From assembly GCA_905182155.1 (NCBI GenBank), contig CAJJAX010000036.1, positions 2,782-66,781 on the forward strand: a stretch of DNA of 64,000 nucleotides. Direction: 5' to 3'. The notes beneath the pieces are model-generated. The model did not search any database, was not told the DNA's origin, and was given only the letters and a program-made list of their open reading frames with translations. Within the stretch, counting starts at the first letter, position 1. Each line of letters begins with the position of its first letter. Source of the stretch: an uncultured Pseudomonadales bacterium (GTDB lineage Bacteria; Pseudomonadota; Gammaproteobacteria; Pseudomonadales; Azotimanducaceae). The translations under genes were made by a program, and so were the position numbers. Shown in pieces: positions 13,797 through 29,934 of this stretch.

Positions 13797-13863
13797 GTTT
13801 AATTGCATGACCTTTGCCGACGGTCTTTGGCAGTCGCCTTTTTGGGTCGCCGCTGATGCGTGT

Positions 13864-14316
13864 CTAGACCTTTGCCTTTGGCAGCAAAAATTGCAGGCGG
13901 CCAATCGCGATGGGTCGTTCAGGATCATCCTGCCAGAGTAACGCTCGAACGTTTGCAATCCGTCGGCCACCCCGAACAATTTCAGCCCGCCCGTAGGTCG
14001 GCCGCGCCTGCCCAGACCGCAAATAGTCAATATCCATATCCACGAGTCGAGGCGCGTTATCTAAGGACTTCAGGAACACCAACGTCAGAAGCCCCGTGAT
14101 ATCCAACAAACTGCCAATCACCCCACCATGTAGCGCGGGCAAATTAGTATTACCAATCAGATCGGCGCGGTCGACGGTGATCGTTTCTAAGCCCTCTGGT
14201 CCAACCCTAAGTTCAACGCCGAGAAACCCCGCATACGGCATTTTCATCAATTGTTGCTGCGCCAAATCTAAGTTCAGCATTGCCCAGCCTGCCTGATCCA
14301 GCTTATTCAACGGCAC
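13864..14316 (-). CDS. PaaI-type hotdog-fold thioesterase
   Basis: 150-aa ORF with LHGGVIGSLLDITG, matching the hGG..a.l.D motif of PaaI/4HBT class II thioesterases. Confidence 0.65.
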   Translation of the reverse strand: MPLNKLDQAGWAMLNLDLAQQQLMKMPYAGFLGVELRVGPEGLETITVDRADLIGNTNLPALHGGVIGSLLDITGLLTLVFLKSLDNAPRLVDMDIDYLRSGQARPTYGRAEIVRGGRRIANVRALLWQDDPERPIAIGRLQFLLPKAKV

Positions 14317-14773
14317 CTCCTACCACTTTTGACGCCGTCGCCGGATTGGGTGTGCTGGGTGTGCCGAGCATAAAGGTCGCTTGACCCGTGGCGATCAGAA
14401 CCTTCGTCGTTGTGGTTTCTGCGGTTGCCCGAACAAACGCAATGTCCCCATCAAAGCCTTCACAAACGGCTCTTACCCGAAGGGTCTCACTCAGACTCGC
14501 GGGGTTAACAAAATCAACGCGTAAATCCAGGGTCGCCATCGACGTGCCCTCTGCATAATCGCGGTGGTCCCGAATACACCATCCGGCCGTATTATCGATG
14601 GTTGCGAGAATCACGCCAGTATGGAACACCCCATCATCCGCATGGCCACTGAGATGTTCTGCGCCGGGCAGCAAGACCGCAACGCCAGGCTCCGAATCGG
14701 CCTCATCCAAGACCATACCGAGCGCCTGACCAAAAGGCGGCAACTCCTTCAAAGATTTCAAAAATAGGGACAT
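14303..14773 (-). CDS. Hotdog-fold thioesterase paralogue (PaaI-like)
   Basis: 156-aa ORF with FHTGVILATIDNTAGW at the position equivalent to the partner's motif. Its stop overlaps the start of the downstream hotdog gene by 14 nt. Confidence 0.55.
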   Translation of the reverse strand: MSLFLKSLKELPPFGQALGMVLDEADSEPGVAVLLPGAEHLSGHADDGVFHTGVILATIDNTAGWCIRDHRDYAEGTSMATLDLRVDFVNPASLSETLRVRAVCEGFDGDIAFVRATAETTTTKVLIATGQATFMLGTPSTPNPATASKVVGGAVE

Positions 14774-14912
14774 CGAGATTTCACTTCAACGCTCAGCGCG
14801 CTCTGGCAGATTAAACGGGAAGTAGTAAAACCCATTTCTAGACAAAAATATACAGAACTGGCACCCTAGGACCGTCCATAAACCGGTACAACACCCTATT
14901 AGGAACCGCTCG

Positions 14913-16010
14913 ATGACGACAACTTCAATGAATGAATTGGGCTTTTATACGTTAGCAGGCGCGCCTGAATCTCCGCGGGATTTAATTGCAGAAGTTCAAA
15001 TGGCCGAAAGCCTTGGTCTGGGTGCTTGCTTTATTTCCGAGCGATTCAACATCAAAGAGATCGCGACCCTCTCTGGCGCTGTTGGGGCCGTCTCTAACAA
15101 AATTGGCATCGCGACCGCGGCGACCAATCAAAACACACGCCATCCCATGGTGACCGCCTCGTTTGCCAGCACCATGCATTTTTTAACGGGCGGGCGGTTT
15201 TCGCTCGGTCTCGGTCGCGGCATTGAACCGGTCTTTAAAGCCTTTGGCCTGCCGTCCATTACTACCCGCGCTATGGAAGATTTCGCAGGCATTATGCGGC
15301 GTCTTCACCAGGGTGAGACTGTTTTGAATCATGAGGGTCCCGCGGGCGCCTGGCCTGCTTTACGGCTTGATCCTAACTTCAACGAACACATTCCGCTGAC
15401 GCTAACCGCTTTTGGCCCAAATTCGCTTGCCTTGGGCGGTCGGGCCTTTGACGCCGTTGTGCTGCACACCTTTTTCACGGACGAAACAACCAAAAGGGCC
15501 GTTGAGACCGTTAAGAACGCCGCGGTCAAAGCGGGCCGAAATCCGGACGATGTTCGAGTTTGGTCTTGCCTGGCAACCATTGGGGATCATCTATCCAAAC
15601 CGCTGCAATTAAAAAAACGGGTTGGCCGAATGGCCACCTATCTGCAGGCCTATGGCGACTTAATGGTTTCAACCAACCAATGGGACCCCGCCGTGCTGGC
15701 GCGCTTTCGAGCCCATGAATTGGTTCGGAACTTCCAAGGCGCACTCGATCAAAATGCCACAACCGAGGAGCTTGAAATTGTGGCGACACTGATTCCCGAT
15801 GCCTGGCTGGCACCAGCGGCCTATGGGTCGCCCACGGCGTGCGTTACCGCGATCAACCACCAGTTTAACCTGGGCTGCGATGGCGTCATTCTGCATGGCG
15901 CCTCGCCCCAAGAACTTGAACCCATCGTGCAGGCTTATGCCACTCAGAGAGATCCAGAACGGTTCCAGCACTTGCCGGCAAACCCAGCACTCGCACCGAG
16001 TCGGGCTTAG
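14913..16010 (+). CDS. Luciferase-like (LLM class) oxidoreductase, probably F420-dependent
   Basis: 365-aa ORF with the LLM N-terminal pattern AESLGLGACFISERFN and GGRFSLGLGRG. Lies 7.7 kb from the F420 biosynthesis operon. Confidence 0.7.
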   Translation: MTTTSMNELGFYTLAGAPESPRDLIAEVQMAESLGLGACFISERFNIKEIATLSGAVGAVSNKIGIATAATNQNTRHPMVTASFASTMHFLTGGRFSLGLGRGIEPVFKAFGLPSITTRAMEDFAGIMRRLHQGETVLNHEGPAGAWPALRLDPNFNEHIPLTLTAFGPNSLALGGRAFDAVVLHTFFTDETTKRAVETVKNAAVKAGRNPDDVRVWSCLATIGDHLSKPLQLKKRVGRMATYLQAYGDLMVSTNQWDPAVLARFRAHELVRNFQGALDQNATTEELEIVATLIPDAWLAPAAYGSPTACVTAINHQFNLGCDGVILHGASPQELEPIVQAYATQRDPERFQHLPANPALAPSRA

Positions 16011-17050
16011 TTTAGAACGCCCAAGGACCGGCTCATCTCGATGCTGCGTTTTGCCATGACCATAAACATTTCATTGCCGCGCTCAGTTTCACCCACAATC
16101 ATCGAAGCAATCAGCGCCATAATCATGCCCGCCGGGGCGTAGTTACGATAATAGGCAAACGCAGTGTCAAATTTCAGATCAACGCGGTAGCTTTTTAGGA
16201 CTTCCAAGTAATGCCGAATCAACGCCGCCTCGTCCTGATCTCGATCGTGGCCCAGGAGCGACGTTCCCATAAAATAGCTCACATCGTTTAGCGGACAGCC
16301 CATCGTTAACGACTGCCAATCAACGACTGTGAGCGGATAGGGCCCGCCAAACATCATGTTATCCAAACGATAATCAACATGAATCAGAACAGGAGGGTTA
16401 TTGCCGTACAACGCTTGATAAGTTGGAATTAACTCGAGCAGTTGTTCCGTGGCGGTAATCTCAACATCCGTTAATTGCGCTCCGTATCGATCGAGATAGC
16501 CCGGCATCAAACCTTTGTATAACTCGGTAATGATTGCGGTATCTTGCCGATCGGTCGAACCCAACAACAAATCATGCTTGGCCAAGGCCTCATCCCCCCA
16601 CTTTGGGCCCTGCAAATGCGCCAGCTGTTCAAGCGCCAGCGCCGCTTGATCCACGCTACAACCCTGCAATTGATCCCCCTGAACGCCGGGCGCTAAGTCT
16701 TCCATCAGCAAGACAAATTCATGCGATTCCGGGTCAATATCGGCATGGTAGATAATGGGGGTCTGGATGTTCACAGACGACTGCAAGCTTTGGTAAAAAA
16801 ACACTTCCCGAACATAATTGCGCTGCAGGATTCCGGTTTGCTTACTAACCGGATCCAGAGACGGAAACTTACCCACGACTGAGGCCGGCACACCCGTTCC
16901 GGTCAAGGAAAAGCGAACGTTCTCGCCAACCTGACCGGTCCCAATCGATTCTCCCTGCAGGCCCGTCACCACGCAGCCAGGGCAACGGACTTGCAGAGCC
17001 GCGGTCATCCAAGCGGGATCGATCTGCTCAGGGTTTGATCGAATATCCAT
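16007..17050 (-). CDS. APH/ecdysteroid-kinase-like phosphotransferase family protein
   Basis: 347-aa ORF with the catalytic-loop-like LIHVDYRLDNMMF followed by VVDWQS. This arrangement is typical of the phosphotransferases found beside acyl-CoA dehydrogenase genes. Confidence 0.7.
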   Translation of the reverse strand: MDIRSNPEQIDPAWMTAALQVRCPGCVVTGLQGESIGTGQVGENVRFSLTGTGVPASVVGKFPSLDPVSKQTGILQRNYVREVFFYQSLQSSVNIQTPIIYHADIDPESHEFVLLMEDLAPGVQGDQLQGCSVDQAALALEQLAHLQGPKWGDEALAKHDLLLGSTDRQDTAIITELYKGLMPGYLDRYGAQLTDVEITATEQLLELIPTYQALYGNNPPVLIHVDYRLDNMMFGGPYPLTVVDWQSLTMGCPLNDVSYFMGTSLLGHDRDQDEAALIRHYLEVLKSYRVDLKFDTAFAYYRNYAPAGMIMALIASMIVGETERGNEMFMVMAKRSIEMSRSLGVLN

Positions 17051-17109
17051 CGCGCGCTCCTTTTAAGGCTAAAGTCGGATCCAGAGCTTGGACCCATTTA
17101 ATGCTGCAT

Positions 17110-17892
17110 CTATGAACCCAGCTTGGCGAGCAGTCCACCAACCGAGCGCATCAACCACCTCGGCTGAAATTGCGCGGCGGTTACGGCGGCCTGATTCAGT
17201 CGGCCAGGAACACACACCACCTCGCCTTTGGCCAGTGCATCAAGACCCGCGTTGGCAACCGCCTCGGGATCGAGCACCATCGCTTCCGGTAGCGCCTCCA
17301 CGGCCGCTTGAATCACGCTCTCGGTCCGCGTAACACCCGGGCACAGCGCCGATGCCGCAACGCCAGAGCCTTTAATTTCCTCGCTCAGGGCCTCTGTCAG
17401 CGACAGCAAATAAGCTTTTGTTGCGCCGTATTGCGCCATGCCTGGCACCGCATGGAATCCCGCGACCGAACATACATTTAAAATACGACCAAAGCCTCGG
17501 CTTTGCATTAAAGGCAAAAAGTGTCGAATCAAGCGGGTTGGCGTCATCACGTTCAATTGCACCAAGGCTTGTTGGTCAACGTCTGAGGTCTGCAAAAAGC
17601 TGCCGTGGGGCGCGATTCCGGCACAATTGACGAGGACATCAACCGTCATCGGCAGGCCTTGCACGGCCGCAATGAGGTCATCAACCCCATCCTGGCAAGA
17701 CAAGTCTGCTTCAAGCGCCACCACATTAACTTGTGCGCCTAACCGCTCAGCCAACGCATCAAGTCGATCCTTTCGACGAGCCGTGACAATCAGGTTCACG
17801 CCACGCGCCGCCAAAGCCACCGCAAGTGCATTGCCAATCCCCGATGAAGCACCCGTCACAAGTGCCGTTGTCTGACTAAACGTAAAGGTCAC
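17110..17892 (-). CDS. Short-chain dehydrogenase/reductase (SDR)
   Basis: 260-aa ORF with TGASSGIGNALA (TGxxxGxG) and the catalytic YGATKAY (YxxxK). Confidence 0.9.
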   Translation of the reverse strand: MTFTFSQTTALVTGASSGIGNALAVALAARGVNLIVTARRKDRLDALAERLGAQVNVVALEADLSCQDGVDDLIAAVQGLPMTVDVLVNCAGIAPHGSFLQTSDVDQQALVQLNVMTPTRLIRHFLPLMQSRGFGRILNVCSVAGFHAVPGMAQYGATKAYLLSLTEALSEEIKGSGVAASALCPGVTRTESVIQAAVEALPEAMVLDPEAVANAGLDALAKGEVVCVPGRLNQAAVTAAQFQPRWLMRSVGGLLAKLGS

Positions 17893-18112
17893 CGATCAAC
17901 CTCCTTCAAAATTTAGATTTTCCAAGCGTCAAGTTAACCCCGCTGAATCAATCATTTTCAATCGATCCACTGCCGAATTAAAACACTAACTTCATGCCAA
18001 ACCTATTTGGGAGCCCGTCATCCATCCCTTCGCTCTGGTAACCCAGATTGATCCAATTTAATCCAACCCATCCGAAAACGGCGCAGAATCCGCTCGGCGA
18101 CCAGCGCCGTGA

Positions 18113-18874
18113 CTAGAATCCGCCAAAATCTGGCAAGCGTTTCTCTTGGAACGCCTTAACGGCTTCTAGATTGGCGGCACCACCCTTGAGCCGGTCCAAG
18201 GCTGCATTTTCTTCAGCGACCGCCGCTTTCAGCCCCTCTTTTTGTGTCCGCATGAGCAGCGCTTTCGTCTGAATGAGCGATGCCAAAGGTAGTGCTGCCA
18301 GCGTGTCAGCATGACGCATCGTGCCCGATAACAGATCTTCATCTGCAAAAACCGACATCACAAGGCCTGCCGCTTTGGCAGCTTCGGCTGACAACCATTC
18401 AGAGGACAGTAATGTCCAACTGGCCTGTTGATGGCCCATCAATCGAGCAAAGGTCACGGTGCTCGCCGCCTCAGCCGTCAAGCCCAAAGCAGAAAAAGGA
18501 CATTTAAACTTGGCTGACGCTGCCGCAAAAGAGACATCCGCCAAGCCTAAGATCGTGCAACCGATTCCTACACCCAAGCCATTGGCCGCGATTAAGAAGG
18601 GTTTCGGGAAATCGATAATGGCCTCTAGCAACCCTTTCAAGCCATGCTTCGGTGGCGTGCCCTTGGCGCCCATCGATTTTAAATCAGCACCCGAACTGAA
18701 CGCTCTGCCAGCACCCGTTAACACTAGGACTTTGGTTTCAGGGTCGGCTTCAGCGGCTAAAAAGGCATCACAAAGGTCATCCATCATCTCGGTACTGAAG
18801 GCGTTCAAAGCCTCCGGGCGATTCATCGTGACCAATCGAACATGATGGGTGATCGTACTCGTAACGACAGGCAT
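18113..18874 (-). CDS. Enoyl-CoA hydratase/isomerase (crotonase) family protein
   Basis: 253-aa ORF with RPEALNAF and VLTGAGRAFSSGADL, the oxyanion-hole region of crotonases. Confidence 0.9.
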   Translation of the reverse strand: MPVVTSTITHHVRLVTMNRPEALNAFSTEMMDDLCDAFLAAEADPETKVLVLTGAGRAFSSGADLKSMGAKGTPPKHGLKGLLEAIIDFPKPFLIAANGLGVGIGCTILGLADVSFAAASAKFKCPFSALGLTAEAASTVTFARLMGHQQASWTLLSSEWLSAEAAKAAGLVMSVFADEDLLSGTMRHADTLAALPLASLIQTKALLMRTQKEGLKAAVAEENAALDRLKGGAANLEAVKAFQEKRLPDFGGF

Positions 18875-18906
18875 TTTTTCTCCTTGAAGGTTAATTTCCT
18901 GTCAAT

Positions 18907-20052
18907 TTAGCGGCCCGCTTTGAACGGAGAGAATTGCTCCAGATAATCAATCTCTTCTGCAATATGAGTCCGCTCTTCTGCCAAATAGCGACCAACCGCC
19001 TCTCTAAAGCCATCATGCACAATCCAATGCGCGCTATAGGTATGGGTCGGCAGGTAACCCCTTGCCAGCTTATGTTGACCCTGCGCACCCGCTTCTACGC
19101 GTTTCAACTTTCTTGAGATGGCAAACTCTATCGCCTGGTAGTAACAGACTTCGAAGTGCAACATTTCGTGATGCTCGATGCAGCCCCAGTTACGTCCGTA
19201 CAGGCATTCGCCGCCAATAAAATTGATTGCACCGGCTATATAACGGCCCTCTCGTTTACACATCACGAGCAATATATCTTGCGCCATTGATGCGCCAATT
19301 AATGAGAAAAATTCACGGCTCAAGTAAGGCGTACCCCATTTACGACTGCCGGTGTCGAGGTAAAATTGATAGAAAGCATCCCAATGATGCTCTTGAATAT
19401 CTGCGCCTGTTAACCGTAAGACCTCCAAATCGTTGGCCAGCGCTTCGCGCCGCTCGCGTTTAATATTTTTGCGTTTCTTACTCGACAGACAATCCAGAAA
19501 ATCGTCGAACGTATCGTAGCCTTGGTTCTGCCAGTGATACTGTTTGTGGGTACGCAACAGCCAGCCCTCATCACCCCGGCGTTGCCAAGCGTCTTGATCT
19601 AAAAAATTAATATGGACTGATGAGATGTTCATCTCGCTGGCAAATTGGGCGGCACCCGAAACCAGCGCAGCTTCGTGTTCGCTGGACGCAACCAGCAACC
19701 GACGTCCGGTGGCTGGCGTGAACGGAATCGCGGACAGCATCTTAGGATAGTATTGACCACCGGCACGCTCGAAAGCATCCGCCCAACTGTAGTCGAAAAT
19801 ATATTCGCCCTGAGAATGCCCTTTGAGATACAACGGCATAACGCCTAGCGGCTGCTTGGCCTCATCTTCCAACACAAGATGATAGGGCAACCAACCAACG
19901 TCCGCCGACACCGAACCACTTTGCTCTAGCGCATTCAGAAAAGCATAGGACAGAAAAGGGTCCCGAGGGGACCCTTTCACGTTGGCAAACCGCTGCCAAG
20001 TCGCTTCTCCAATCTCTTGGAGACCCTCAACGGCTCTAACACTCAATGCCAT
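18907..20052 (-). CDS. FemAB-like / GNAT-fold protein of unknown function
   Basis: 381-aa ORF. The N-terminal PFLSYAFLNALEQSGSV...GWLPYHLVL block and the length match the conserved proteobacterial FemAB-like family as I remember it. Not verified by search. Confidence 0.6.
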   Translation of the reverse strand: MALSVRAVEGLQEIGEATWQRFANVKGSPRDPFLSYAFLNALEQSGSVSADVGWLPYHLVLEDEAKQPLGVMPLYLKGHSQGEYIFDYSWADAFERAGGQYYPKMLSAIPFTPATGRRLLVASSEHEAALVSGAAQFASEMNISSVHINFLDQDAWQRRGDEGWLLRTHKQYHWQNQGYDTFDDFLDCLSSKKRKNIKRERREALANDLEVLRLTGADIQEHHWDAFYQFYLDTGSRKWGTPYLSREFFSLIGASMAQDILLVMCKREGRYIAGAINFIGGECLYGRNWGCIEHHEMLHFEVCYYQAIEFAISRKLKRVEAGAQGQHKLARGYLPTHTYSAHWIVHDGFREAVGRYLAEERTHIAEEIDYLEQFSPFKAGR

Positions 20053-20070
20053 CTAAAACGCTCTTTTTGG

Positions 20071-21106
20071 TTACAGCATTTCCGAGGCAATCAGTTCCAG
20101 CGCTTCTGGCTGGCCTGCACCAATCAACATCGAGCCCACATCGCCGTTGAGACCGGCAGTTTTCCAGTGCTTTAACTGCTCTTTAATGTGCTCAGCTGGT
20201 CCAACAAGATGACAGGCATCAACCAACTCATCCGGCACCGCCGCCATCGCCTCATCCTTACGACCGGACAAATACAGATCCTGAATCGTCGCCGCCGCAT
20301 CTTCATAGCCCAAGGCCTTGGTGTAATCATTATAAAAGTTCTTATCACGAGCCCCCATGCCACCAATATAAAGCGCCATATTGCCCTTAATCGGCATTCT
20401 GCAAGCCTCAATGTCATCACCCATAATACAAGTCACGAACGGCGCCACATCATAATCCAGCATCGTGCGACCCGATTTGGTTAAGACCTTTTTCGATATG
20501 ACCTCGGAGGGCGCCTGGATTAGCGGGGTTCATCCAGATGGGGAAGACGCCATCGGCCACTTCTGCGCTGCCAGCAAGACCATTGGGCGTAATCGAGGCC
20601 GTATAAATCGGAATCGAGGTGTCCGCTTGTAAAATGCTCTTCAAGGATTTGCCAAGGCCGGTGCCATCCTCGCCAGTGTAGGGCAAGCTGTAATGAAACC
20701 CTTCGTGTTCAACCGGTCCCTCACGGGCAAAGATTTTTTTCATGATACTGACATATTCCTTCACCCGGGTGACGGGTCGACCATAGGCCACGCCGTGCCA
20801 TCCCTCGACCACTTGGGGGCCCGATGCGCCAAGCCCAACCATAAACCGGCCGTTAGACAATTGATTCAGCGTCATCGCGGTCATCGCAGTACAAGCCGGC
20901 GAGCGCGCGGGCATTTGCATGATGGCGGTCCCAACCTTGATTTTATCCGTCTGCGCCAGGATCCAAGCAGCCGGTGTGACCGCGTCAGAACCATAGGCTT
21001 CAGCGGTCCAAAGCGAGTCGTAACCCATACTTTCCGCCATCTTGATGCGTTGAATGTCGATGTTCAGTACTTTGCCGCCGTATCCGGCCAGTATTCCTAG
21101 TTTCAT
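20071..21106 (-). pseudogene. LLM-class (probably F420-dependent) oxidoreductase split by a single-base frameshift near 20455-20490
   Basis: The track ORFs 20450..21106 (MKLGILAGY...MAESMGYDSLWTAEAYGSD...FPIWMNPANPGALRGHIEKGL) and 20071..20463 (MLDYDVAPFV...YIGGMGARDKNFYNDY...) are the N and C halves of one roughly 345-aa LLM protein. The other frame across the junction reads TKSGRTMLDYDV with no stop. Confidence 0.75.
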
Positions 21107-21474
21107 GGTCTCTTTCCTTTTTAATTCAAACTATCGTGTTTATTGCCAAAACAATCGCGGCTTAACCAGATTGAACCCGGGCCCTGTAAACCGGGGTCAT
21201 GCCGGTTCAACCGATCGATCAGCCGCTCTGGGTTTCAGGATTCCGTCTAACGCTTAACGTTTGCCCTGCTGCATTTTGCGTCTCACCGAGGCCTTGCCGC
21301 TTTACTTTTTTGTGCCCGCATCGCATTGATCACCTTTTTTTTGGTTTACCGCCAAGGTCCCTTCCGCGTTCTGCGTCGACTTCTACTGTTACTTTCGCTA
21401 TTACTTTCGCTTAATTTTAGCTCGGGCCTCGGCTTCGGATTGTCCCCCTCAGCATCCGCCCAAGCAGCACCGCA

Positions 21475-22479
21475 TTAAGCGGTTAATTGCGCCAATAACG
21501 CCCGACTGTGGGCCTCATCTTTGCCGACAAAGTTACCCATGGTTCGATCAACCACGTTGCCAAAACGACCCTTGAACAGATCAACAGCCGCCTCAGGCTC
21601 ACCCACCACCGCAAACTCAGCGAGAATCTCATCGGTAATTAAATTGGCCATGTCATCCCACAGGCCTTGCTTTGACAACTTATTGAGTTCGGGCTGAAGA
21701 TCACCCCAACCATGAACCCCCAAGACCGGCGCGTAAGCGGGTGTTGAGCCATAAAAGGCAATCTGTTTGCGAACGGCTTGCCGATTGGCGTTAAAGGCTT
21801 CCTCGGTATGACCGGTCACCACAAAGCCAGGATAGCTGATCTCGAAATCTGCGCGTGAGCGTCCTGATTTCGCGAGTCCTCGTTCAATGGCTGGCAGGGT
21901 CACCTCCCTCAGATATTTCTCAGTGGTAAAGGCATGAATAATGACCCCATCCGCTACCTCGCCCGCGACTTCTGTCATTAACGGTCCGACCGCGGCAAGA
22001 AAGACCCTCGGCGCACCAAATTCGGTATCCAGCGGCGTGAACATCGGCGTCATCAGCGAATGGGTGTAGAACTCGCCTTCAAACTGCAACGGGGTACCCT
22101 CATGCCAACAAGCCCAGATCGCGCGCATCGCAGAAATAAATTCCCGCATGCGAGCAGCTGGCTTAGACCAGGGCATGCTGAACCGCTTGGTGATGTGCGG
22201 CCTGATTTGAGACCCTAGCCCAAGGATAAACCGCCCCTTGGAAACGCTATTGAGGTCATGCCCGATATTCGCAAGATTCATCGGCGTTCTTGAAAAGGCC
22301 ACTGCGATCGACGTGGTGAGTTCAATTGCTTTGGTTTCTTGCGCTGCCAGCAGCAACGGGAAAAACGGGTCATGGGACGTCTCGGCTGTCACCACGCCGT
22401 TGTAACCTAAATTTTCTAGTTTGGCCGCCTGCTGCCCTGCTTGCGCCAAATCTCCCATCAAACCGCCATCAATTTTCAT
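21475..22479 (-). CDS. Luciferase-like (LLM class) oxidoreductase, probably F420-dependent
   Basis: 334-aa ORF with LENLGYNGVVTAETSHDPFFPL and GRFILGLGSQ. Confidence 0.7.
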   Translation of the reverse strand: MKIDGGLMGDLAQAGQQAAKLENLGYNGVVTAETSHDPFFPLLLAAQETKAIELTTSIAVAFSRTPMNLANIGHDLNSVSKGRFILGLGSQIRPHITKRFSMPWSKPAARMREFISAMRAIWACWHEGTPLQFEGEFYTHSLMTPMFTPLDTEFGAPRVFLAAVGPLMTEVAGEVADGVIIHAFTTEKYLREVTLPAIERGLAKSGRSRADFEISYPGFVVTGHTEEAFNANRQAVRKQIAFYGSTPAYAPVLGVHGWGDLQPELNKLSKQGLWDDMANLITDEILAEFAVVGEPEAAVDLFKGRFGNVVDRTMGNFVGKDEAHSRALLAQLTA

Positions 22480-22488
22480 CGTCTGCTC

Positions 22489-23484
22489 CTAAAAAGTAAA
22501 TTGATTGCCCGTAAAGGCATTGTAAGTCGCTTGGGCATGTTTGCCTGAAACGCACGAAATAATATGGGTGGTGATACCCGCTTCGCCGTAAGCCCTAATC
22601 CGGTCCTGGCACTCTTCTTGGGTACCAATAATGGCAATGTCGTCGACCAATTGATCATCCAGCGCCGAGGTTGTCTTCTCTCTATCTTTCGCCGCCCAGC
22701 CTTCTCGGATAGCAGATGCCACGTCTTCATAACCGGCCCACGCCAAAAACGCGTTATACACGGGGGTTGCATAGTAAGGCGCAAAGGCCGCCCGGACCAT
22801 GTTTCGAGCCGCGTCTTTATCATCGGTTACGATCACCTGGTGCCGACAAACGATTTCAACGTCTTCAAGGGCTTTGCCTGCGCGCTCGGCGCCTGCACGA
22901 ATGTGCGTCATCATTCGCGGCAAGGCCTCTTTGGGAAACAAATTCAGAATCACGCCATCACTAAACTCTGCGGCAGCCTCAAGCATCTTGCTCCTCAGCG
23001 CAGCCATGTAGACCGGTTGCGCCCCGGCTTCAAGTGGTAACTGACGATAGCCACGGCTGAATACCGTCTCGCCAGCATAATCTGACTTCTCACCCCGCAG
23101 CATGCTTTGGATCAACTCGACTGTTTCCTTAACTCGGGTCAACGGCTTTTCAAAGTTTAAGCCATGCCAGTTCTCCATCATGGTCTGGCTTGAAGAGCCT
23201 AGGCCCAAAATGAATCGCCCCTCGGATAACTGATGCAATACATGAGCCGTTGACGCCAAAACAGCCGGTGTTCGCGAAAATACTGGAATGATCGCCGTGC
23301 CGATTCGGCACCGACTGGTATTGAGCGCGACCGCGGCCGCAGTGGTTAAGGCATCAACCCCAGAGCTATCTGCAAACCATAGATCATCATAGCCTTCGGC
23401 TTCGGCCCACTTCGCCATCTCAATGGTGCCGGCAACGCCTCTCGGGTCGGGTAGCGTCAACGCGGTTCTTTGGGGTACTGTCAT
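22489..23484 (-). CDS. Luciferase-like (LLM class) oxidoreductase, probably F420-dependent
   Basis: Has AEAEGYDDLWFADSSGVDALT and GRFILGLGSS. Start moved to ATG 23484 (MTVPQRT...), which follows AAGGAGA with a 6-nt spacer. The track start at 23535 adds 17 residues. Confidence 0.7.
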   Translation of the reverse strand: MTVPQRTALTLPDPRGVAGTIEMAKWAEAEGYDDLWFADSSGVDALTTAAAVALNTSRCRIGTAIIPVFSRTPAVLASTAHVLHQLSEGRFILGLGSSSQTMMENWHGLNFEKPLTRVKETVELIQSMLRGEKSDYAGETVFSRGYRQLPLEAGAQPVYMAALRSKMLEAAAEFSDGVILNLFPKEALPRMMTHIRAGAERAGKALEDVEIVCRHQVIVTDDKDAARNMVRAAFAPYYATPVYNAFLAWAGYEDVASAIREGWAAKDREKTTSALDDQLVDDIAIIGTQEECQDRIRAYGEAGITTHIISCVSGKHAQATYNAFTGNQFTF

Positions 23485-23679
23485 AAGGTTTCTCCTTGCT
23501 GCCACTGGCGTCCAGTGGGTTACATTTTTGCGCATTCAGTCTGTTTTGATAACGACCATATTCTGGCATCTGTCCCGTCGACGCACCGTTGCCTACCATG
23601 CCATGAGTGCGCTATCTGACGCGCTCTTTGTAAGGCCCGTGATACCCCATCATCAGCGACTATCATAGCCCAGAGGGTT

Positions 23680-26174
23680 CTAGATAATTTCGGCACTGGA
23701 TAGAATTTCTTCTGGGATGAGCCCTGGACGCACTAAAGGCTCCTTTTTGGTCTTATCGCGATCGTAACGTTTCGCGGAGGTATACGTCGGCTCGCTTAAC
23801 ACCGCCGCGCCAAACGACTTCTGCCGTTGCACCTCCGGCACTACGCCGTAATTTGTTGCTCGCTGTCTGGGCAATCGTCCCGCAGATCGGATGATACCTT
23901 CCATTTCCTCGGGCGAGGTTTCCTGCCCATGCGCCGCGCCTGCGGCTCGAGTGATGGTCTCATTCATGAGCGTGCCGCCAATATCGTTCACACCCGCATT
24001 CAAACAGGCCTTAACGCCCTCATGGCCGAGCTTGGTCCAAGACGCTTGGATATTCTTAAATACCGGATTCAAGGCCAGTCGGGCAATCGCATGGATCAGG
24101 ATCGCCTCTCGAAAAGTCGGCCCCTTCCGAGCATTGCCTTTCAAGTAAATCGGCGCTTCCATATGAATGAAAGGCAAAGCACGAACTCGGTAAAACCGCC
24201 GGTTTTTTCCTGTAACGCCCGCACCCTTAATAAGTGCCTGGCAACATGCTCATACTGCTCGATATGGCCATACATAATCGTGGCCGTGGTATTAAAGCCC
24301 ACCCCATGGGCGGCCTCCATCACTTCTAGCCACTGTGCGGTATTGATTTTATCCGGGCAGAGCGTTGCCCGAACCTCATCATCAAGAATTTCCGCCGCGG
24401 TGCCCGGCAAGGTGCCCAGCCCGGCTTCTTTTAACGCAGTCAGATATTCTGGCAACCTAACGCCAAGTGTGGCTGCGCCCTGCCACACCTCCAGCGGCGA
24501 GAATGCGTGAATATGCATTTCAGGCGTCGCACTGCGAACAGTGTTGACAATATCCAGATACGTTTGACCGGTGTAGTCGGGATGAATCCCACCCTGCATG
24601 CAGACCTCGGTCGCTCCTCGATCCCAGGCCTCGCTGCAACGCCCGGCAATATCTTCACCGGTAATATCATAGGGCCTGCCGCGTAAATTTTCGCTCTGCT
24701 TGCCCTTAGAGAAGGCGCAGAACTGACATTTGAAATAACACACGTTGGTATAATTAATATTTCGATTAACACAATAGGTCACCTCATCGCCGACCAAATG
24801 CTTTCGGACCGTATCGGCCGCTTGGGAAATATGGGTTATTTCGTCCCCTCGCGCCTGAAACAACCTGACAATTTCACCCTCTGATAAAGCGTTGCCAGCA
24901 ACCGCTTTGTTCAGGATCTTCTCTAAGGTTGCTGACGCCTTAAGCTTCGGAATATGCGTGACTCGGGCCAAGTCGCCAGCCGGCGGGTTCGGCGTTTCAC
25001 CTGCCGCCCAGTCTTCACCACGAACATACCCCTCGCCGTCAATCGCGCCTAAAACCATGGGCCTGAGCTTGACATCAATCCATCGATCCATTTGCTTCAA
25101 ATGCGAAGGATAAACGGCCAGACGCTCAACCAAGATCTTGCCTTCGCGCGCTGTTTCTTCGGCTAAATTTTTAAGGTGCGGCCAAGGCGCTTCAGGGTTT
25201 ACAAAATCGGGGGTAACGGGCGAAACCCCGCCCCAATCGTTGATGCCTGAATCAATGATTCGATGGAACACGCCAGGACTTAAATTCGGCGGGGCCTGCA
25301 GGTTCATCTGACTGCCAAAAATGAGTCGCGCCTGCGCGATGGTCCAAAGCAGCTCATTCAAGTCTGGTTCGGGCGCATTGACCATCAGCGTGTCGGGTTT
25401 TGCCCGGAAGTTCTGAATGATCAATTCTTGAATATGCCCAAAAGGCTCGTTCGCGGTGCGCAGCGCCAGTAATGACTCAATACGCTCGCGACGGGTTTCG
25501 CCAATCCCAATTAAAATACCGGATGTAAACGGGACGCCCGCTTCCCCAGCCAGTCGAATGGTCTCGAGTCGCTTGGCCGGCGCTTTGTCGGGCGACCCAT
25601 AATGCGGCATGCCTTTTTCGGTCAGTCGATCGGATGCCGACTCAAGCATAATCCCCATTGATATCGATACTTTACGCAGCGCTGTAAACTCGGACGCTGT
25701 CATCAGCCCAGGATTCAAATGTGGCATCAAGCCCGTTTCTTTGAGCACCAGTTCTGCCATATCGTGGAGATAACTCAAGGTTGAGTCTTGACCCAAGGCT
25801 TTAAGCCCGTCGCGAGCCGCTTTGTATCGCGCCTCAGGTTTATCACCCAAGGTAAATAGCGCCTCTTTACAACCGGCTTTGGCGCCGTCGGCAGCAATTT
25901 TCAAGACTTCGTCTGGCGTTAAGTAAGGGGCTTTTAACTTCCGAGGGACTTGCGCAAAGGTGCAGTAATGACAAACGTCGCGACACAGATGGGTGAGCGG
26001 GATGAACACTTTTCTTGAGTAAGACATGGCGTTCGGATGGCTGAGATCCCGGACTGAACCCGCATGGCGCAGAAGCTCGTCCGTTTCGGTGTAGTCAGCA
26101 AGCACTAACGCTTCGTGGTCATCGAGGCCTTGGCCTAATGCCGCCTTCTGAAGAATCTCTGTTATGGCACTCAT
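23680..26174 (-). pseudogene. fbiC: FO synthase FbiC (fused CofG+CofH), interrupted by a 1-nt deletion near 24179
   Basis: Two radical-SAM motifs: CRDVCHYCTF (CofG half) and CYFKCQFCAF (CofH half). The upstream frame ends ...[20 protein letters not shown]. The next frame continues [27 protein letters not shown]. The DNA gtg-ct-ttg-cct-ttc looks like V-P-L-P-F with one base missing. Start set at ATG 26174, after AGGAGG. Confidence 0.85.
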
Positions 26175-26863
26175 TACAACCCACCTCCTGTGACCGACGA
26201 TAGTCTGGCGCTCACATCGATTGCCACACAATAACGATAAGTATGGGACTCCGTCCCCTGAAATGCCAGTCGATCCATAAACCGTTTTAAATCGTCCGGC
26301 GTGTCAATATCCAAACCCAAACCAGGCAGCTTTAAGACCGTTGGCTCAAGACCGACCGCTTGCGCCGCTTTGACATGCTTGCGAAAGCTATCGATTCCAA
26401 ACTGAAACGTGACGACCCCCGGCGGAGACGCCAACAGGCAATTCGTGCCACCCAGATCATCTGCGGGCACCAAGGCTAGGCCCGGGCCCTTGGGCGAGAA
26501 GCCATCGAGAATAACTTCGATTTCCTCAGGTGTAACCAAGGGCACGTCCCCCGGTAAAAATAGCATTTGATCTATGCCCGCTTGGGTTAAGGTTTGACAG
26601 GCATGTACCACTGCGGGAATGAGCCCTGGTTCGGCCGGTTCTGGCAGAATCAGAGCGCCGTAGCCCTCGGCCAACTCAATTGCAGCGGGATCATTGGTAA
26701 TCACCATGATCTCATCCACCAACGGGCAAGCTTCAACCGCAATCAAAACATCTTCCACCATCGCTTGGCAGAGCCTGCGCCGCTCCTCACTCGACAACAG
26801 GGCCGACAATCGCTGCTTGGCATTCTCAAACCCCTTAACGGGAATAATCGCGCGGGTCGTCAT
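26174..26863 (-). CDS. cofC: Guanylyltransferase CofC/FbiD (2-phospho-L-lactate or related substrate)
   Basis: 229-aa ORF with AIIPVKGFENAKQRLS and LFLPGDVPLV, typical of CofC. Its stop overlaps the fbiC ATG (TAATG). Its start overlaps the cofD stop (ATGA). Confidence 0.8.
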   Translation of the reverse strand: MTTRAIIPVKGFENAKQRLSALLSSEERRRLCQAMVEDVLIAVEACPLVDEIMVITNDPAAIELAEGYGALILPEPAEPGLIPAVVHACQTLTQAGIDQMLFLPGDVPLVTPEEIEVILDGFSPKGPGLALVPADDLGGTNCLLASPPGVVTFQFGIDSFRKHVKAAQAVGLEPTVLKLPGLGLDIDTPDDLKRFMDRLAFQGTESHTYRYCVAIDVSARLSSVTGGGL

Positions 26864-27861
26864 CAGCCTGCTAACTCATCAGAAAAAAGTAATACCGCTT
26901 CTGCGAGCGCCTGCTTGTCCGCCAGATTCTTCATCACCGTTTGGGTGACTAAGGGCCTCATTCCTAAGGCACTAACCGCGTCAGCGCTCGCTGCATCGGC
27001 TTCATCCAGAACGAACCCGTCCACCAAACCCGGGTAGGTTTGTTCATAAAACCTTGCCACAGCGAGCGCCGTGCTCGGCATCTTTAGCTCAGTCATCATT
27101 TTTGCGGCTGGCCCTTTTAAGGCCATCCCGGCAACGATTGGTGAAACCAGCACAACCGGGCAATCAATCGCTTTTAACGCTTTCCAAGTTTCAGCCAGGT
27201 CAAGGATTGGCGCGACGCTGACAAAGGGATTAGACGGACAAATAATGATCTGGGTCAGGCTGTCAGAATCAATCAATTTTTCGAAATCAGGCGCTCGCCT
27301 AGCCGTCTCGATCCCTTGAAATGAAATTCCTTTGATCAAAGGCTCGCATCGGTCTCTGACAAAATAATGTTGGAAAGCGAGGGTCTCGCCATTCTGGCAA
27401 TGGATCAAGGTCGCGACCTGGTCATCGGTCATGGGTAGCACGTTGGTCGTCACACCCAGGGCGTGCATCAACGCGGTGGTTACCGCGCTCAGCGATAGCC
27501 CCCCTGCGAGCAAGGACGTGCGCTGAATATGGGTTGCCAAATCTCGATCGCCAAGGCTAAACCAGGCATCTCCCCCGATGCGTTTGAGCGCCTCAAGAAA
27601 CTGCCAAGTCTCATCCTGCTGACCCCAGCCGAGCGTTTGATTGGCGAGGCCCGATAGGGTGTACATGAGGGTATCTAAGTCGGGACAGACCCGGAGGCCA
27701 AGGTGCTCGAAATCATCGCCCGTATTGACGACCACCGTTAGCGCGTCAGCCGAGACAACTTGGGCAAGACCCAGCGCCAACTTCGCGCCGCCAACGCCAC
27801 CTGATAACGCCAAAACTTTCGGTGACGTCCGCACCATGATTCGCTCACTCTTATTCAACAC
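26863..27861 (-). CDS. cofD: FO 2-phospho-L-lactate transferase CofD/FbiA
   Basis: Has LALSGGVGGAKLALGL and CPSNPFVSVAPIL. The track start at 27861 is GTG. An ATG at 27837 (MVRTSPKV...) is an equally plausible start. Confidence 0.9.
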   Translation of the reverse strand: MLNKSERIMVRTSPKVLALSGGVGGAKLALGLAQVVSADALTVVVNTGDDFEHLGLRVCPDLDTLMYTLSGLANQTLGWGQQDETWQFLEALKRIGGDAWFSLGDRDLATHIQRTSLLAGGLSLSAVTTALMHALGVTTNVLPMTDDQVATLIHCQNGETLAFQHYFVRDRCEPLIKGISFQGIETARRAPDFEKLIDSDSLTQIIICPSNPFVSVAPILDLAETWKALKAIDCPVVLVSPIVAGMALKGPAAKMMTELKMPSTALAVARFYEQTYPGLVDGFVLDEADAASADAVSALGMRPLVTQTVMKNLADKQALAEAVLLFSDELAG

Positions 27862-27923
27862 TGCAGTGGGACGCTACCACAAAAGCCTTTTTAACTGCTA
27901 TTGAAACCCAGCCCACAGCAAGA

Positions 27924-29371: not shown

Positions 29372-29858
29372 GATCTTTCCTTTTTTCTAAAACAATTCAA
29401 TTGCTTAATCTAATGCCAAACTGACGTGCCCAACCGGGCTTAAAACGGGTCTTTTCATTAACGCTGACCTGAAGAACTGATTTCAATGGATAACGACGCA
29501 ACCCTATGGCTTTGCGACGTCCCTTGTCGGCTTACACTCAAATTCATGAGTGAGCAATAAGTTCCCCTGTGTGAACAATGACCTCTGCCCTTCACACGGC
29601 CCTATTATGAAGCAGTTTGCTCAGTACTTCACCCGGTAGACGCCTCGCTCACTGCAGAAGTGTGATTACGCTCGCAAACAACACTAGTCAACATCAAACG
29701 GCCTAAAACTGCGTGCACTGCCTTCAACCCAAAGGGAGGATTAATTGGAAGCCATTTCATGATTCGTGGCTAAAGAAGCGGCGCCGATTAAGCCAAAGCC
29801 TCGAAAAAAATCCAGTCTCCAATCTCAATACGTATCCTCATCAACTTAGCTCATTAAA

Positions 29859-29917: not shown

Positions 29918-29934
29918 CTAAAACACTGATTATT

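Follow-up and report, generated by a model that had tools for sequence, protein, structure and literature searches.

A candidate "make-and-use" F420 locus with a conserved core in a marine gammaproteobacterium

A 64,000-nucleotide stretch of contig CAJJAX010000036.1 (hereafter, the window) from a marine OM182/HTCC2089-family gammaproteobacterium places a complete F420 biosynthetic gene set (fno–cofE–cofD–cofC–fbiC) next to four luciferase-like oxidoreductase (LLM) genes, raising the question of whether the enzymes encoded there use the cofactor and, if so, for what. We favor, at a probability of roughly 55%, the reading that this is a "make-and-use" F420 locus with a conserved core, and we place its LLM_A, LLM_B, and LLM_C among the luciferase-like hydride transferases that depend on F420, in the Mer-like "reductase" branch.

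Organization of the locus

All genes listed by the initial annotation were recovered as profile matches and ORFs at, or very near, the positions that it gave (Table 1), with LLM genes called by PF00296. Among the biosynthetic genes, fno, cofE, cofD, and cofC each score above NCBIfam equivalog cut-offs, and the intact fbiC orthologue of a relative, L001 (831 aa), reaches 1133 bits on NF006687 (cut-off, 1018). The co-directional block begins with fno, which overlaps cofE by 4 bp. CofE is a single-domain protein of 259 aa that matches the ligase part alone of the 449-position FbiB-type model and lacks the FbiB C-terminal nitroreductase domain. The true start of cofD is probably at 27837, because the L001 gene call is 324 aa long. 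Gaps are short or overlapping within fno–fbiC, between LLM_A and LLM_B (9 bp), and from LLM_C through the tandem-GNAT gene (18 bp) to the crotonase gene (32 bp), and a pattern search for promoters and terminators returned none above background.

Table 1. Features of the F420 locus and of the surrounding window
Feature	Position	Strand	Profile evidence (bits vs. cut-off) and remarks
fno/npdG, NADPH-dependent F420 reductase	28700..29371	-	TIGR01915, 191.2 vs. 149.8; PF03807
cofE, F420-0:gamma-glutamyl ligase	27924..28703	-	TIGR01916, 266 vs. 180.65; PF01996
cofD, 2-phospho-L-lactate transferase family	26863..27861	-	TIGR01819, 279.8 vs. 257.45; PF01933
cofC, guanylyltransferase of F420 pathway	26174..26863	-	TIGR03552, 164.5 vs. 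105; PF01983
fbiC, fused CofG/CofH FO synthase, frameshift-split	23680..26177	-	ORFs 24141-26231 (Radical_SAM) and 23680-24177 (CofH_C)
LLM_A, F420-class LLM, Rv3093c subfamily	22489..23484	-	TIGR03841, 233.5 vs. 213.65
LLM_B, F420-class LLM, MSMEG_2256 subfamily	21475..22479	-	TIGR03617, 469.2 vs. 278.15
LLM_C, F420-class LLM, Rv3520c subfamily, frameshift-split	20071..21106	-	TIGR03559
FemAB_like tandem-GNAT transferase, partner of LLM trio	18907..20052	-	PF04339, 517
Crotonase-family enoyl-CoA hydratase/isomerase	18113..18874	-	PF00378, 156
SDR, short-chain dehydrogenase/reductase	17110..17892	-	PF00106, 157
APH/EcKL-family small-molecule kinase	16007..17050	-	PF02958, PF01636
LLM_D, F420-class LLM, MSMEG_2249 subfamily, cassette gene	14913..16010	+	TIGR03857, 379.4 vs. 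218.4
Hotdog-fold (4HBT) thioesterase 1, paired with thioesterase 2	14303..14773	-	PF03061, 31.5 vs. 20.6
Hotdog-fold (4HBT) thioesterase 2, distal cluster edge	13864..14316	-	PF03061, PF13622
Fifth LLM	36639-37541	-	PF00296
CoA-transferase III	2-1186		Outside cluster
Acyl-CoA synthetases	1227-2918 and 41385-42925		Outside cluster
Thiolase	7833-8999		Outside cluster
ACADs	43017-44168 and 58661-59818		Outside cluster

The gene beyond thioesterase 2 is a true ilvD (TIGR00110, 737 bits versus a cut-off of 618). The initial annotation had drawn a larger, possible catabolic island, but unrelated genes (PEPCK, a permease, an aminotransferase, the ilvD, a TonB receptor, an RNA methyltransferase, an MFS transporter, and a GST) stand between the cluster and that island's thiolase, its ACADs and acyl-CoA synthetases, and its CoA-transferase. 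Support for the suggested link to the breakdown of fatty acyl-CoA is only partial: genes of acyl-CoA type in the cassette do adjoin the LLMs, whereas the distant genes do not belong.

From these gene identities, FbiC, CofC, CofD, and CofE would together build F420, with 2-phospholactate, 3-phosphoglycerate, or PEP as possible tail precursors, and Fno would load the cofactor with hydride from NADPH. We infer that the co-directional LLM_A, LLM_B, and LLM_C spend the F420H2, with hydride flowing toward C=C, C=O, or C=N bonds of organic substrates, and that the FemX-fold tandem-GNAT transferase is the constant companion of these three. Between this core and the hotdog thioesterase pair lies a variable slot, which in this sub-lineage would be filled by a cassette (crotonase, SDR, small-molecule kinase, and the fourth F420-class LLM); the content of the cassette suggests that some of the chemistry, at least in this sub-lineage, concerns oxo-, hydroxy-, or unsaturated acyl-thioester-type substrates. 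Counting against this reading, the F420 pathway comes with no identifiable 2-phospholactate source and no dehydro-F420 reductase domain, and the cluster within the window contains no acyl-CoA synthetase, ACAD, regulator, or transporter.

Cofactor class of the LLM proteins

The four clustered LLMs fall into F420-specific subfamilies, not into FMN monooxygenase families. Three pass the respective model cut-offs outright; LLM_C exceeds that of TIGR03559 (335) only as the sum of its two frameshifted halves (233.9 and 117.9 bits, covering profile positions 1-208 and 217-319), and its homologue in the more distant L063 scores 374 bits against the same cut-off. Close relatives of LLM_D carry the NCBI name "TIGR03857 family LLM class F420-dependent oxidoreductase." Among solved relatives, Mer is the closest to all four, at 66 to 120 bits (E values of 1.5e-33 for LLM_A, 1.7e-17 for LLM_B, 3.7e-24 for the intact, 344-aa form of LLM_C, and 4.5e-20 for LLM_D), whereas FMN enzymes score ~22 to 39 bits or are absent (the best for LLM_A at E 2.6e-6). 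Because pairwise identity among the four is only 24 to 31%, we rejected the view that they are recent duplicates; they are ancient members of different subfamilies. To our knowledge, none of these subfamilies has a member with a known substrate or a biochemically defined reaction, which weighs against the favored reading. The fifth LLM, which the initial annotation had added to the set, scores below all curated cut-offs and is unlinked to the cluster.

Conservation of the core and variability of the cassette

We compared 80 species-representative genomes or loci that possess a relative of the central LLM_B. The cof genes lie beside it in 32 of these, and in 29 the order fbiC, LLM_A, LLM_B, LLM_C, tandem-GNAT is retained, defining the conserved core (fbiC is followed by LLM_A in 29 relatives, and the tandem-GNAT gene follows LLM_C in 34); 24 hold all five cof genes together with the three LLMs and the tandem-GNAT gene. 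Such a repeated order of the cof genes and three LLMs, in 29 species representatives, is not due to chance, and the trio stays cof-linked across the OM182/HTCC2089 family; this linkage, like the F420 class of the LLMs, speaks in favor of the initial annotation. Conservation of gene order within one family can, however, reflect inheritance and not selection.

The best-kept non-LLM partner is the FemAB_like protein (381 aa), for which an AF2 model (pLDDT, 85) predicts a tandem-GNAT fold whose best Foldseek matches are FemX (E 4e-12; TM, 0.55) and aminoacyl-tRNA-dependent peptide synthases. At the sequence level, it matched no solved structure, and a literature search found no function for PF04339, a family without a characterized member.

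The cassette is less constant. Of the 26 cof-linked loci long enough to be judged, 11 contain the full crotonase–SDR–kinase–LLM_D set, and the slot in the other 15 is occupied by an MDR reductase, DksA, a class II aldolase, DUF188, PhzF, TauD, or a P450. The initial annotation's mixture of LLMs and acyl-CoA-type enzymes is real in the window, but its acyl-CoA-type part, together with LLM_D, gives way to other genes in most informative relatives. The cassette moves as a unit (12 loci, in two different downstream contexts), the SDR–kinase pair is retained in 14 relatives, and thioesterase 2 marks the far side of the slot in 15 cof-linked relatives. Elsewhere in the family, LLM_D is found at other sites, beside an SDR and an aminotransferase, and in at least one member (CP121333), the kinase orthologue is remote from the cof cluster and has no LLM among its neighbors. 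In the window, kinase and LLM_D are convergent, with a 4-bp overlap at the 3′ end of LLM_D. The crotonase reaches no NCBIfam cut-off (PaaF and EchA19 at ~143 bits versus 371 and 400), nor does the SDR, whose best match, mycolate reductase, scores 177 bits against 380. The AF2 model of the kinase (pLDDT, 90) most resembles 3dxp, APH(2''), N-acetylhexosamine kinase, and 25-hydroxysteroid kinase, all at a TM of ~0.5.

Alternative explanations

Two explanations would dissolve the locus as a working F420 system, and we consider both improbable. The more remote of them, already largely refuted, is that the LLMs are FMN-dependent alkanesulfonate- or nitrilotriacetate-type monooxygenases whose genes adjoin the cof genes by coincidence: all LLMs share the general PF00296 domain with FMN enzymes, and LLM_A weakly matches the SsuD and SfnG models, but scores on FMN-family models are about ten-fold under their cut-offs (e.g., 49 bits versus 518 for SsuD), F420 subfamily cut-offs are passed instead, F420 enzymes are the nearest solved structures, the cluster has no gene for a partner flavin reductase, and the linkage to cof genes is kept in 29 species. 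It is also quite improbable that the F420 system is decaying in this strain, with real frameshifts in fbiC and LLM_C, a cofactor no longer made, and a cluster being lost. Relative to L001, fbiC has a 1-bp deletion near 24177 and LLM_C, an LLM gene that is present as first annotated but lies in two ORFs, a 1-bp insertion at 20486, such that single-base indels break 2 of 15 cluster genes in otherwise near-identical sequence. A metagenome scaffold of 98.6% identity has intact versions of both, and also of at least three or four unrelated genes that are likewise split or truncated within the 64 kb of the window (acyl-CoA synthetase, ABC ATPase, KARI, and SDR). Furthermore, the exact LLM_B protein occurs in 341 assembly-collection blocks, and in all 24 of the 24 contigs examined, the neighbors match three loci with intact fbiC and LLM_C. 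Because several unrelated window genes are frameshifted too, the frameshifts point to assembly error, a pattern consistent with consensus errors in a strain-mixed assembly.

The remaining two explanations accept the F420 dependence of the LLMs and differ in what the enzymes do. The stronger, which we hold to be possible if somewhat doubtful, is that crotonase, SDR, kinase, and thioesterases are ordinary neighbors in a recombination-prone slot that share no pathway with the LLMs, whose substrates might instead be quinones, xenobiotics, sugar phosphates, or imines. Unrelated gene sets do occupy the post-GNAT slot across relatives, LLM_D and the kinase are placed elsewhere in other genomes of the family, more distant relatives of LLM_B sit in mixed contexts (CoA-transferase, MFS transporter, NUDIX, DSBA), and acyl-CoA genes abound in such marine gammaproteobacteria, as in the rest of the window. 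Yet the cassette brings its own F420-class LLM when it moves, the crotonase begins only 32 bp past the LLM_C–GNAT pair, and two independent arrangements again set APH-family kinases and crotonases next to LLMs of F420 class: L063 has a TIGR03841 LLM and a divergent APH gene, close to a crotonase and a further four F420-class LLMs, and in L088, a kinase of 54% identity is convergent with a TIGR03619 LLM. The other, which we consider unlikely, is that the core is biosynthetic: its LLM trio and FemX-fold transferase would modify one of the cell's own compounds (for example, an envelope lipid, an N-acyl or aminoacyl conjugate, or a small metabolite), much as F420-dependent LLMs of mycobacteria tailor ketomycolic acids and phthiocerol lipids. 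The tandem-GNAT gene is the sole non-LLM gene fixed to the trio, and its fold matches also include a clavulanate-pathway tandem GNAT and MprF-type aminoacyl-lipid synthases, so that a biosynthetic or tailoring role would fit as well as the lipid or xenobiotic catabolism first proposed. The core has no regulator or transporter, its conservation across the family suits a housekeeping trait, and lipid and antibiotic biosynthesis are among known LLM roles (PMC8498797). On the other hand, the FemX match is of class level only (13% identity) in a family yet to be characterized, and the LLM–kinase clusters of L063 and L088 carry SSF, MFS, TonB receptor, and LysR genes; such uptake transporters and regulators are typical of catabolism and favor it. 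We lean weakly toward a catabolic over a biosynthetic role for the make-and-use locus.

Comparison with known systems

The window LLMs match exactly the models named after actinobacterial Rv3093c (TIGR03841), MSMEG_2256 (TIGR03617), Rv3520c (TIGR03559), and MSMEG_2249 (TIGR03857), and, as in mycobacteria, several different subfamilies occur together in one genome. The name-giving genes have lipid or xenobiotic contexts: the lipid-degradation repressor KstR binds the Rv3520c promoter (PMC1995591), and Rv3093c shares a transcript with the gene of the ACAD-fold monooxygenase Rv3094c (PMC9904262). Unlike these, the LLMs of the window reside in a marine gammaproteobacterium, joined to an F420 biosynthetic operon and a PF04339 transferase. 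Because the subfamilies have no biochemically defined reaction, what is transferred from them is limited to "F420-dependent."

F420-dependent LLMs are monophyletic and form two clades, Mer-type reductases and Fgd/Adf dehydrogenases (Mascotti 2018, PMC6279831). Mer, the F420-dependent methylene-tetrahydromethanopterin reductase of methanogens, matches all four LLMs better than any other solved relative does (E 1e-17 to 1e-33), which places them in the F420H2-consuming branch (PMC6279831). They were rejected as Mer itself, since they score far under its equivalog cut-offs (e.g., 152 bits versus 348.7) and the window showed no genes of a methanopterin pathway. The FemAB_like protein shares a predicted tandem-GNAT fold with FemX/FemAB and other tandem-GNAT enzymes, as its Pfam name implies, but is only 13 to 16% identical to them, and its donor may be an aminoacyl-tRNA or an acyl-CoA.

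For the cassette, the closest analogy is the ACAD10/ACAD11 4-hydroxyacyl-CoA pathway, in which an APH-type kinase domain phosphorylates the acyl-CoA hydroxyl, enabling elimination (PMC12440821, PMC11342911). The window likewise sets an APH-family kinase beside an SDR, a crotonase, and thioesterases, and 25-hydroxysteroid kinase is among the fold matches; in contrast, its cluster has no ACAD-family partner, the kinase match is generic (14 to 17% identity), and ACAD10/11 is absent from the top 50 fold matches. Kinase-assisted hydroxy-acid or steroid catabolism is an analogy for a possible mode of action of the cassette, not a statement of membership.

Fused FbiC, single-domain CofE, and Fno as the sole recognized F420-reducing enzyme characterize F420 biosynthesis in Proteobacteria (PMC8498797), a combination that the window shares with Paracoccus denitrificans, Oligotropha carboxidovorans, and the 3PG-F420 producer Paraburkholderia rhizoxinica. 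The F420 Proteobacteria covered in that review are Alpha- and Betaproteobacteria, with Gammaproteobacteria absent, and P. rhizoxinica is described as having no known F420-dependent enzyme (PMC8498797). By contrast, the operon in the window has three or four candidate F420 consumers attached, and the locus thereby offers a handle on the role of F420 in Proteobacteria.

Gene content and layout of the F420 locus

Every gene named in the initial annotation exists, as confirmed by ORF listing and profile searches (coordinates are collected in the table). Genes for FO synthase (fbiC), CofC, CofD, and CofE are all present and, together with fno, lie beside four luciferase-like oxidoreductase (LLM) genes, here termed LLM_A through LLM_D. 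Scores for fno, cofE, cofD, and cofC exceed their equivalog cut-offs; fbiC is frameshifted in the window and intact in near-identical metagenome contigs, and an intact orthologue scores above its own cut-off. CofE is a single-domain protein of 259 aa whose match to the FbiB-type model is confined to the ligase part. Neither route to a saturated lactyl linker (2-phospholactate supply or a dehydro-F420 reductase) is encoded within the cluster: profile searches recovered no nitroreductase-family gene there, and no gene for a 2-phospholactate-forming enzyme lies nearby. Such a reductase could lie elsewhere in the genome, or the cell could produce a 3PG-type cofactor; the form made may thus be classical, 3PG-type, or dehydro-F420.

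Features of the window and of two related loci (positions in the window unless a locus is named)
Feature	Coordinates	Strand	Remarks
CoA-transferase	2-1186
Acyl-CoA synthetases	1227-2918; 41385-42925
Thiolase	7833-8999
Hotdog thioesterases (two)	14303-14773; 13864-14316		divergent from LLM_D
LLM_D	14913-16010	plus	converges on kinase, 4-bp overlap
APH/EcKL kinase	16007-17050	minus
SDR	17110-17892	minus
Crotonase	18113-18874	minus
FemAB-like protein	18907-20052	minus	PF04339, 517 bits
LLM_C	20071-21106	minus	PF00296
LLM_B-LLM_C spacer	21107-21474		368 bp
LLM_B	21475-22479	minus	PF00296
LLM_A	22489-23484	minus	PF00296
fno, cofE, cofD, cofC, fbiC	29371 down to 23680 (block continues to 16007)	minus	profile matches
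cofE	27924-28703	minus
Terminator	29896-29919		after TonB-dependent receptor gene, before fno
TonB-dependent receptor	29935-33084	minus
SAM-dependent RNA methyltransferase	33364-33957	minus	PF04013
GST	35951-36631	plus
Fifth LLM	36639-37541	minus
136-aa ORF	37594-38004	minus
ACADs	43017-44168; 58661-59818
753-aa protein	44260-46521	plus	cyclic-nucleotide-binding domain
255-aa ORF	60682-61449	plus	no Pfam match at E 0.001
Related cluster, L063	2664-14072		LLM_C; M48 peptidase; APH kinase divergent from LLM_A; crotonase; sodium:solute symporter; histidine phosphatase; two LLM_B; further LLM
Related cluster, L088	394-13292		near-threshold TIGR03559-like LLM; SsuD-like LLM; ACAD; aldo-keto reductase; GFO/IDH oxidoreductase; LysR; two MFS; TonB receptor

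Consensus scanning of 13000-30500 for promoters and terminators gave counts no higher than shuffled expectation, the one convincing signal being the strong terminator between the receptor gene and fno; transcription units are therefore drawn from gene spacing only. Spacing suggests that fno through fbiC (overlaps of 1 to 4 bp and one 62-bp gap), LLM_A-LLM_B (9 bp), LLM_C-FemAB-like-crotonase (18 and 32 bp), and SDR-kinase (59 bp) each form a unit, with wider gaps of 195, 368, and 220 bp between them. The cluster edge is placed at the thioesterases because the next gene encodes a true dihydroxy-acid dehydratase (ilvD; TIGR00110, 737 bits versus a cut-off of 618).

The widest of these gaps, between LLM_B and LLM_C, is purine-rich and carries a 12-bp tandem duplication, ATTACTTTCGCT (plus strand), that is missing from a metagenome scaffold 98.6% identical to the window. 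A hidden feature in this spacer was considered and rejected: a scan of the whole window returned zero Rfam matches, and the equivalent gap in one relative (L015) is only 27 bp. We treat the spacer as lineage-specific non-coding DNA.

Upstream of the cluster lies the PF04013 methyltransferase gene, from a family related to archaeal TrmY; in at least 18 relatives this gene is the immediate upstream neighbour of fno. In the window's lineage, an inserted TonB-dependent receptor gene separates the pair, and one near-identical contig has a different receptor (28% identity) at the same spot.

The clustered luciferase-like proteins fall in the F420 class

All five LLM ORFs match PF00296, the intact ones with 108 to 264 bits. 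We called a protein F420-class when it scored above the curated NCBIfam cut-off of a subfamily model in the TIGR035xx/036xx/038xx series. LLM_A (TIGR03841, 233.5 versus 213.65), LLM_B (TIGR03617, 469.2 versus 278.15), and LLM_D (TIGR03857, 379.4 versus 218.4) pass outright. The two halves of the frameshifted LLM_C match consecutive parts of TIGR03559 with 233.9 and 117.9 bits (cut-off, 335), so that its assignment is made on the summed halves; a more distant homologue, in L063, scores 374 on the same model. Relatives of LLM_D in these genomes are already labelled F420-dependent oxidoreductases by the NCBI pipeline. The closest solved structures for all four are F420-dependent methylene-tetrahydromethanopterin reductases (Mer; 66 to 120 bits), followed by Fgd and Adf, versus about 22 to 39 bits, or no match, for the best FMN enzyme.

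An identity as FMN-dependent monooxygenases (SsuD, SfnG, NtaA, or LuxAB types) is very unlikely: FMN-type models, such as that for alkanesulfonate monooxygenase, reach at best 25 to 49 bits against cut-offs of 244 to 518, roughly ten-fold too low, and profile searches found no flavin reductase domain among the cluster genes. The F420-dependent LLMs constitute a single clade, with a Mer-type "reductase" branch that consumes F420H2 and an Fgd/Adf "dehydrogenase" branch (PMC6279831); judged by nearest relative, the four clustered proteins fall on the reductase branch. They share only 24 to 31% pairwise identity and are thus old, distinct subfamilies and not recent paralogues.

The fifth LLM is unlinked to the cluster and passes no curated cut-off (best, 92.6 bits versus 345.4), all of its sub-threshold matches being to F420-type subfamily models. 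It is flanked by a GST gene and by the 136-aa ORF, which has no Pfam match. This trio is kept in the near-identical scaffold.

A conserved core and a variable slot

Scanning one genome per species yielded 343 relatives of LLM_B, of which the best 80 loci were compared by tblastn with all cluster proteins and by de novo clustering of all ORFs. Nearly all of these 80 derive from uncultured members of the Pseudomonadales that bear the labels OM182, HTCC2089, K189A, or Candidatus Azotimanducaceae, a gammaproteobacterial family. As in the window, cof genes lie beside LLM_B in 32 of the 80 best loci, where LLM_B identity is 74 to 92%. In 29, fbiC is followed by LLM_A, LLM_B, LLM_C, and the FemAB-like gene, and all five cof genes accompany these in 24, with most of the others ending at a contig edge. 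The order fbiC-LLM_A-LLM_B-LLM_C-FemAB-like is a conserved core. The top 120 matches in each search with LLM_D, the FemAB-like protein, and the kinase were close marine relatives only.

Conservation of the neighbourhood extends to the core beside the cof genes, but the slot beyond the FemAB-like gene varies. Downstream sequence reaches at least 9 kb in 26 loci; 11 of these carry the window's cassette of crotonase, SDR, kinase, and LLM_D, and a few have the SDR-kinase pair without the other cassette genes; the remaining slots hold an MDR-type reductase, DksA, a class II aldolase, DUF188, another SDR, PhzF, TauD, or a P450. The thioesterase pair tends to occupy the far side of the slot. Other family members have LLM_D elsewhere, between an SDR and an aminotransferase, and in at least one (CP121333) the kinase orthologue, too, is separate from the cof cluster and has no neighbouring LLM. 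Given this variable presence and these separate locations, the cassette is a movable module rather than a constant component of the F420 locus.

A second group of about 20 loci (L061 to L083) contains LLM_B relatives of 66 to 69% identity in a different cluster, exemplified by L063, with no cof genes within 10 kb. All five LLMs of this cluster type pass F420-class cut-offs (TIGR03559, TIGR03841, TIGR03617 twice, and TIGR03619). In another Pseudomonadales genome (L088), a 54%-identical orthologue of the kinase converges on an F420-class LLM of the TIGR03619 subfamily. An APH-family kinase therefore adjoins an F420-class LLM in three arrangements (window, L063 type, and L088), which is suggestive of coupling, although such kinases and crotonases are common in these genomes anyway.

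Distant acyl-CoA genes

The initial annotation had extended the proposed catabolic island to a CoA-transferase, acyl-CoA synthetases, a thiolase, and two ACADs further out. These genes are real, but unrelated genes separate them from the cluster: PEPCK, a radical-SAM protein, an amino-acid permease, an aminotransferase, and ilvD on one side, and a TonB receptor, an RNA methyltransferase, an MFS transporter, a GST, a DsbA-like protein, and DUF5916 on the other. GC content is unremarkable (0.52 to 0.55 over the cluster, versus 0.47 to 0.57 window-wide) and gives no compositional trace of an island or of recent transfer over the cluster. Beyond a general richness of such genomes in acyl-CoA enzymes, nothing ties the distant genes to the F420 genes. 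The window also includes a 255-aa ORF and the 753-aa protein with a cyclic-nucleotide-binding domain; a 715-aa orthologue of the latter, in L089, has weak precomputed matches to Lactamase_B and Anti-Pycsar Apyc1.

Frameshifts and divergent patches

A 1-bp deletion near 24177 disrupts fbiC in the window, and a 1-bp insertion at 20486 does the same to LLM_C. Metagenome contigs of 98.3 to 98.6% identity carry both genes unbroken, and the assembly collection indexes the exact LLM_B protein in 341 blocks. Elsewhere in the window, an acyl-CoA synthetase and an ABC ATPase are split, KARI is truncated, and an SDR is shortened, and all four are intact in a metagenome scaffold of 98.6 to 99.2% identity. 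These breaks coincide with short, almost unalignable patches (41707-41750, 48831-49031, 50671-50719, and 52265-52380). On this comparison, the frameshifts look like the product of strain-mixed or error-prone assembly and not like decay of the F420 system.

Divergent patches also occur within near-identical genes, at 19100-19400 (FemAB-like), 24464-24666 (fbiC), and 13504-13541 (ilvD). The patch in the FemAB-like gene preserves the reading frame and the conserved residues of the family, which suggests recombination with a more distant allele; at least some patches are therefore genuine allelic mosaics. The FemAB-like protein has no database match above 92% identity, whereas its neighbours have identical or near-identical ones (99 to 100%).

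The FemAB-like protein and the kinase

Sequence searches with the FemAB-like protein (PF04339) found no solved relative, and we found no functional literature on the family. Its AlphaFold model (AF2; pLDDT 85) has a tandem-GNAT fold, with FemX as a Foldseek match (E 4e-12, probability 1.0, TM 0.55); the other best folds are aminoacyl-tRNA-dependent peptide synthases, a tandem GNAT of the clavulanate pathway, and MprF-type aminoacyl-lipid synthases, all at a TM of about 0.55 and 13 to 16% identity. It is a predicted acyl or aminoacyl transferase.

The kinase model (pLDDT 90) resembles aminoglycoside, N-acetylhexosamine, choline, and 25-hydroxysteroid kinases and the uncharacterised structure 3dxp; that is, small-molecule hydroxyl kinases in general. 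A close relationship to ACAD10/11 or LvaA was considered and rejected, as the kinase matches 3dxp only weakly by sequence (E 5.5e-6) and its structural matches are generic.

Discussion

The identity of these genes, the class of the clustered LLMs, and their linkage to the cofactor genes are firm. The F420 locus is well conserved in an abundant marine family, had not been described before, and is made of recognisable parts. Nothing in its architecture or mechanism is unexpected; the components are ordinary and were already named by automatic annotation. We read the locus as a putative make-and-use F420 unit, in which FbiC, CofC, CofD, and CofE would make F420, Fno would reduce it with NADPH, and the Mer-branch proteins LLM_A, LLM_B, and LLM_C (plus LLM_D, if present) would spend F420H2 in reducing organic substrates. 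The direction of hydride flow in this scheme is the one that would be expected from the branch on which the LLMs are placed.

What is reduced is less constrained, and we agree with the initial annotation that substrates are not predictable from sequence. Its reading of a possible F420-dependent lipid or xenobiotic catabolic island survives in part: the F420-class LLMs and their linkage to the cof genes stand, but neither the wider island nor a fixed cassette does. The cassette and thioesterases point to acyl-thioester-like substrates, at best for this sub-lineage. The transporters and regulators of the related clusters lean toward a catabolic role, and the fixed tandem-GNAT partner leans toward tailoring of an endogenous molecule.

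A more specific proposal, which we consider unlikely (roughly one chance in eight), is that the F420 system serves one pathway combining a small-molecule kinase, a FemX-fold transferase, and deazaflavin-dependent LLM reductases. Such a pathway could be a deazaflavin counterpart of the kinase-plus-flavoenzyme route (ACAD10/11, Lva, and 25-hydroxysteroid kinase), and by analogy would strip awkward hydroxyl or oxo groups off acyl chains; kinase-assisted removal of hydroxyls from acyl-CoAs is documented for ACAD10/11 (PMC12440821, PMC11342911). The generic kinase fold and the absence of an ACAD mean that the likeness to ACAD10/11 remains an analogy. Alternatively, the pathway could use F420 to tailor an envelope lipid that is aminoacylated or acylated. 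Either, if true, would provide the first defined physiological role of F420 and the first characterised F420-dependent enzymes in Proteobacteria.

Aside from any one pathway, an abundant and mostly uncultured bacterioplankton family keeps genes for a transferase and three candidate F420 users attached to its cofactor operon. In 2010 the authors of TIGRFAM reportedly already listed Colwellia psychrerythraea, a gammaproteobacterium, as F420-positive, a status reflected in the model name F420_CPS_4043. F420 biosynthesis has been demonstrated experimentally in Alpha- and Betaproteobacteria, yet a 2021 review regarded the purpose of F420 in Proteobacteria as an open question, the bacterial F420-dependent enzymes studied experimentally to that date being from Actinobacteria only (PMC8498797). 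Our literature searches found nothing linking F420 with OM182 and nothing relevant on F420 with "marine gammaproteobacteria," and those on HTCC2089, OM182, and Azotimanducaceae surfaced nothing on F420. The locus yields a short list of testable proteins and makes the open question experimentally approachable; if these proteins do use F420, deazaflavin biochemistry would reach marine Gammaproteobacteria, and the roles of widespread but uncharacterised LLM subfamilies common to mycobacteria might be revealed.

Mycobacteria are well known to carry clusters of F420-class LLMs, and the window's four LLM subfamilies carry the names of mycobacterial genes; to our knowledge, no reaction has been defined for any of the four. 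Two of the namesakes sit in lipid or xenobiotic contexts: KstR binds the promoter of Rv3520c (PMC1995591), and Rv3093c shares a transcript with Rv3094c (PMC9904262). Actinobacterial FbiB has a nitroreductase-like C-terminal domain that the window's CofE lacks, and this single-domain form agrees with what is described for Proteobacteria. The Lva and ACAD10/11 pathways couple an APH kinase to an ACAD, whereas the cluster has a kinase and no ACAD, the nearest ACADs being more than 19 kb away. With FemXAB-type transferases, the FemAB-like protein has in common the tandem-GNAT fold, as seen in its predicted structure.
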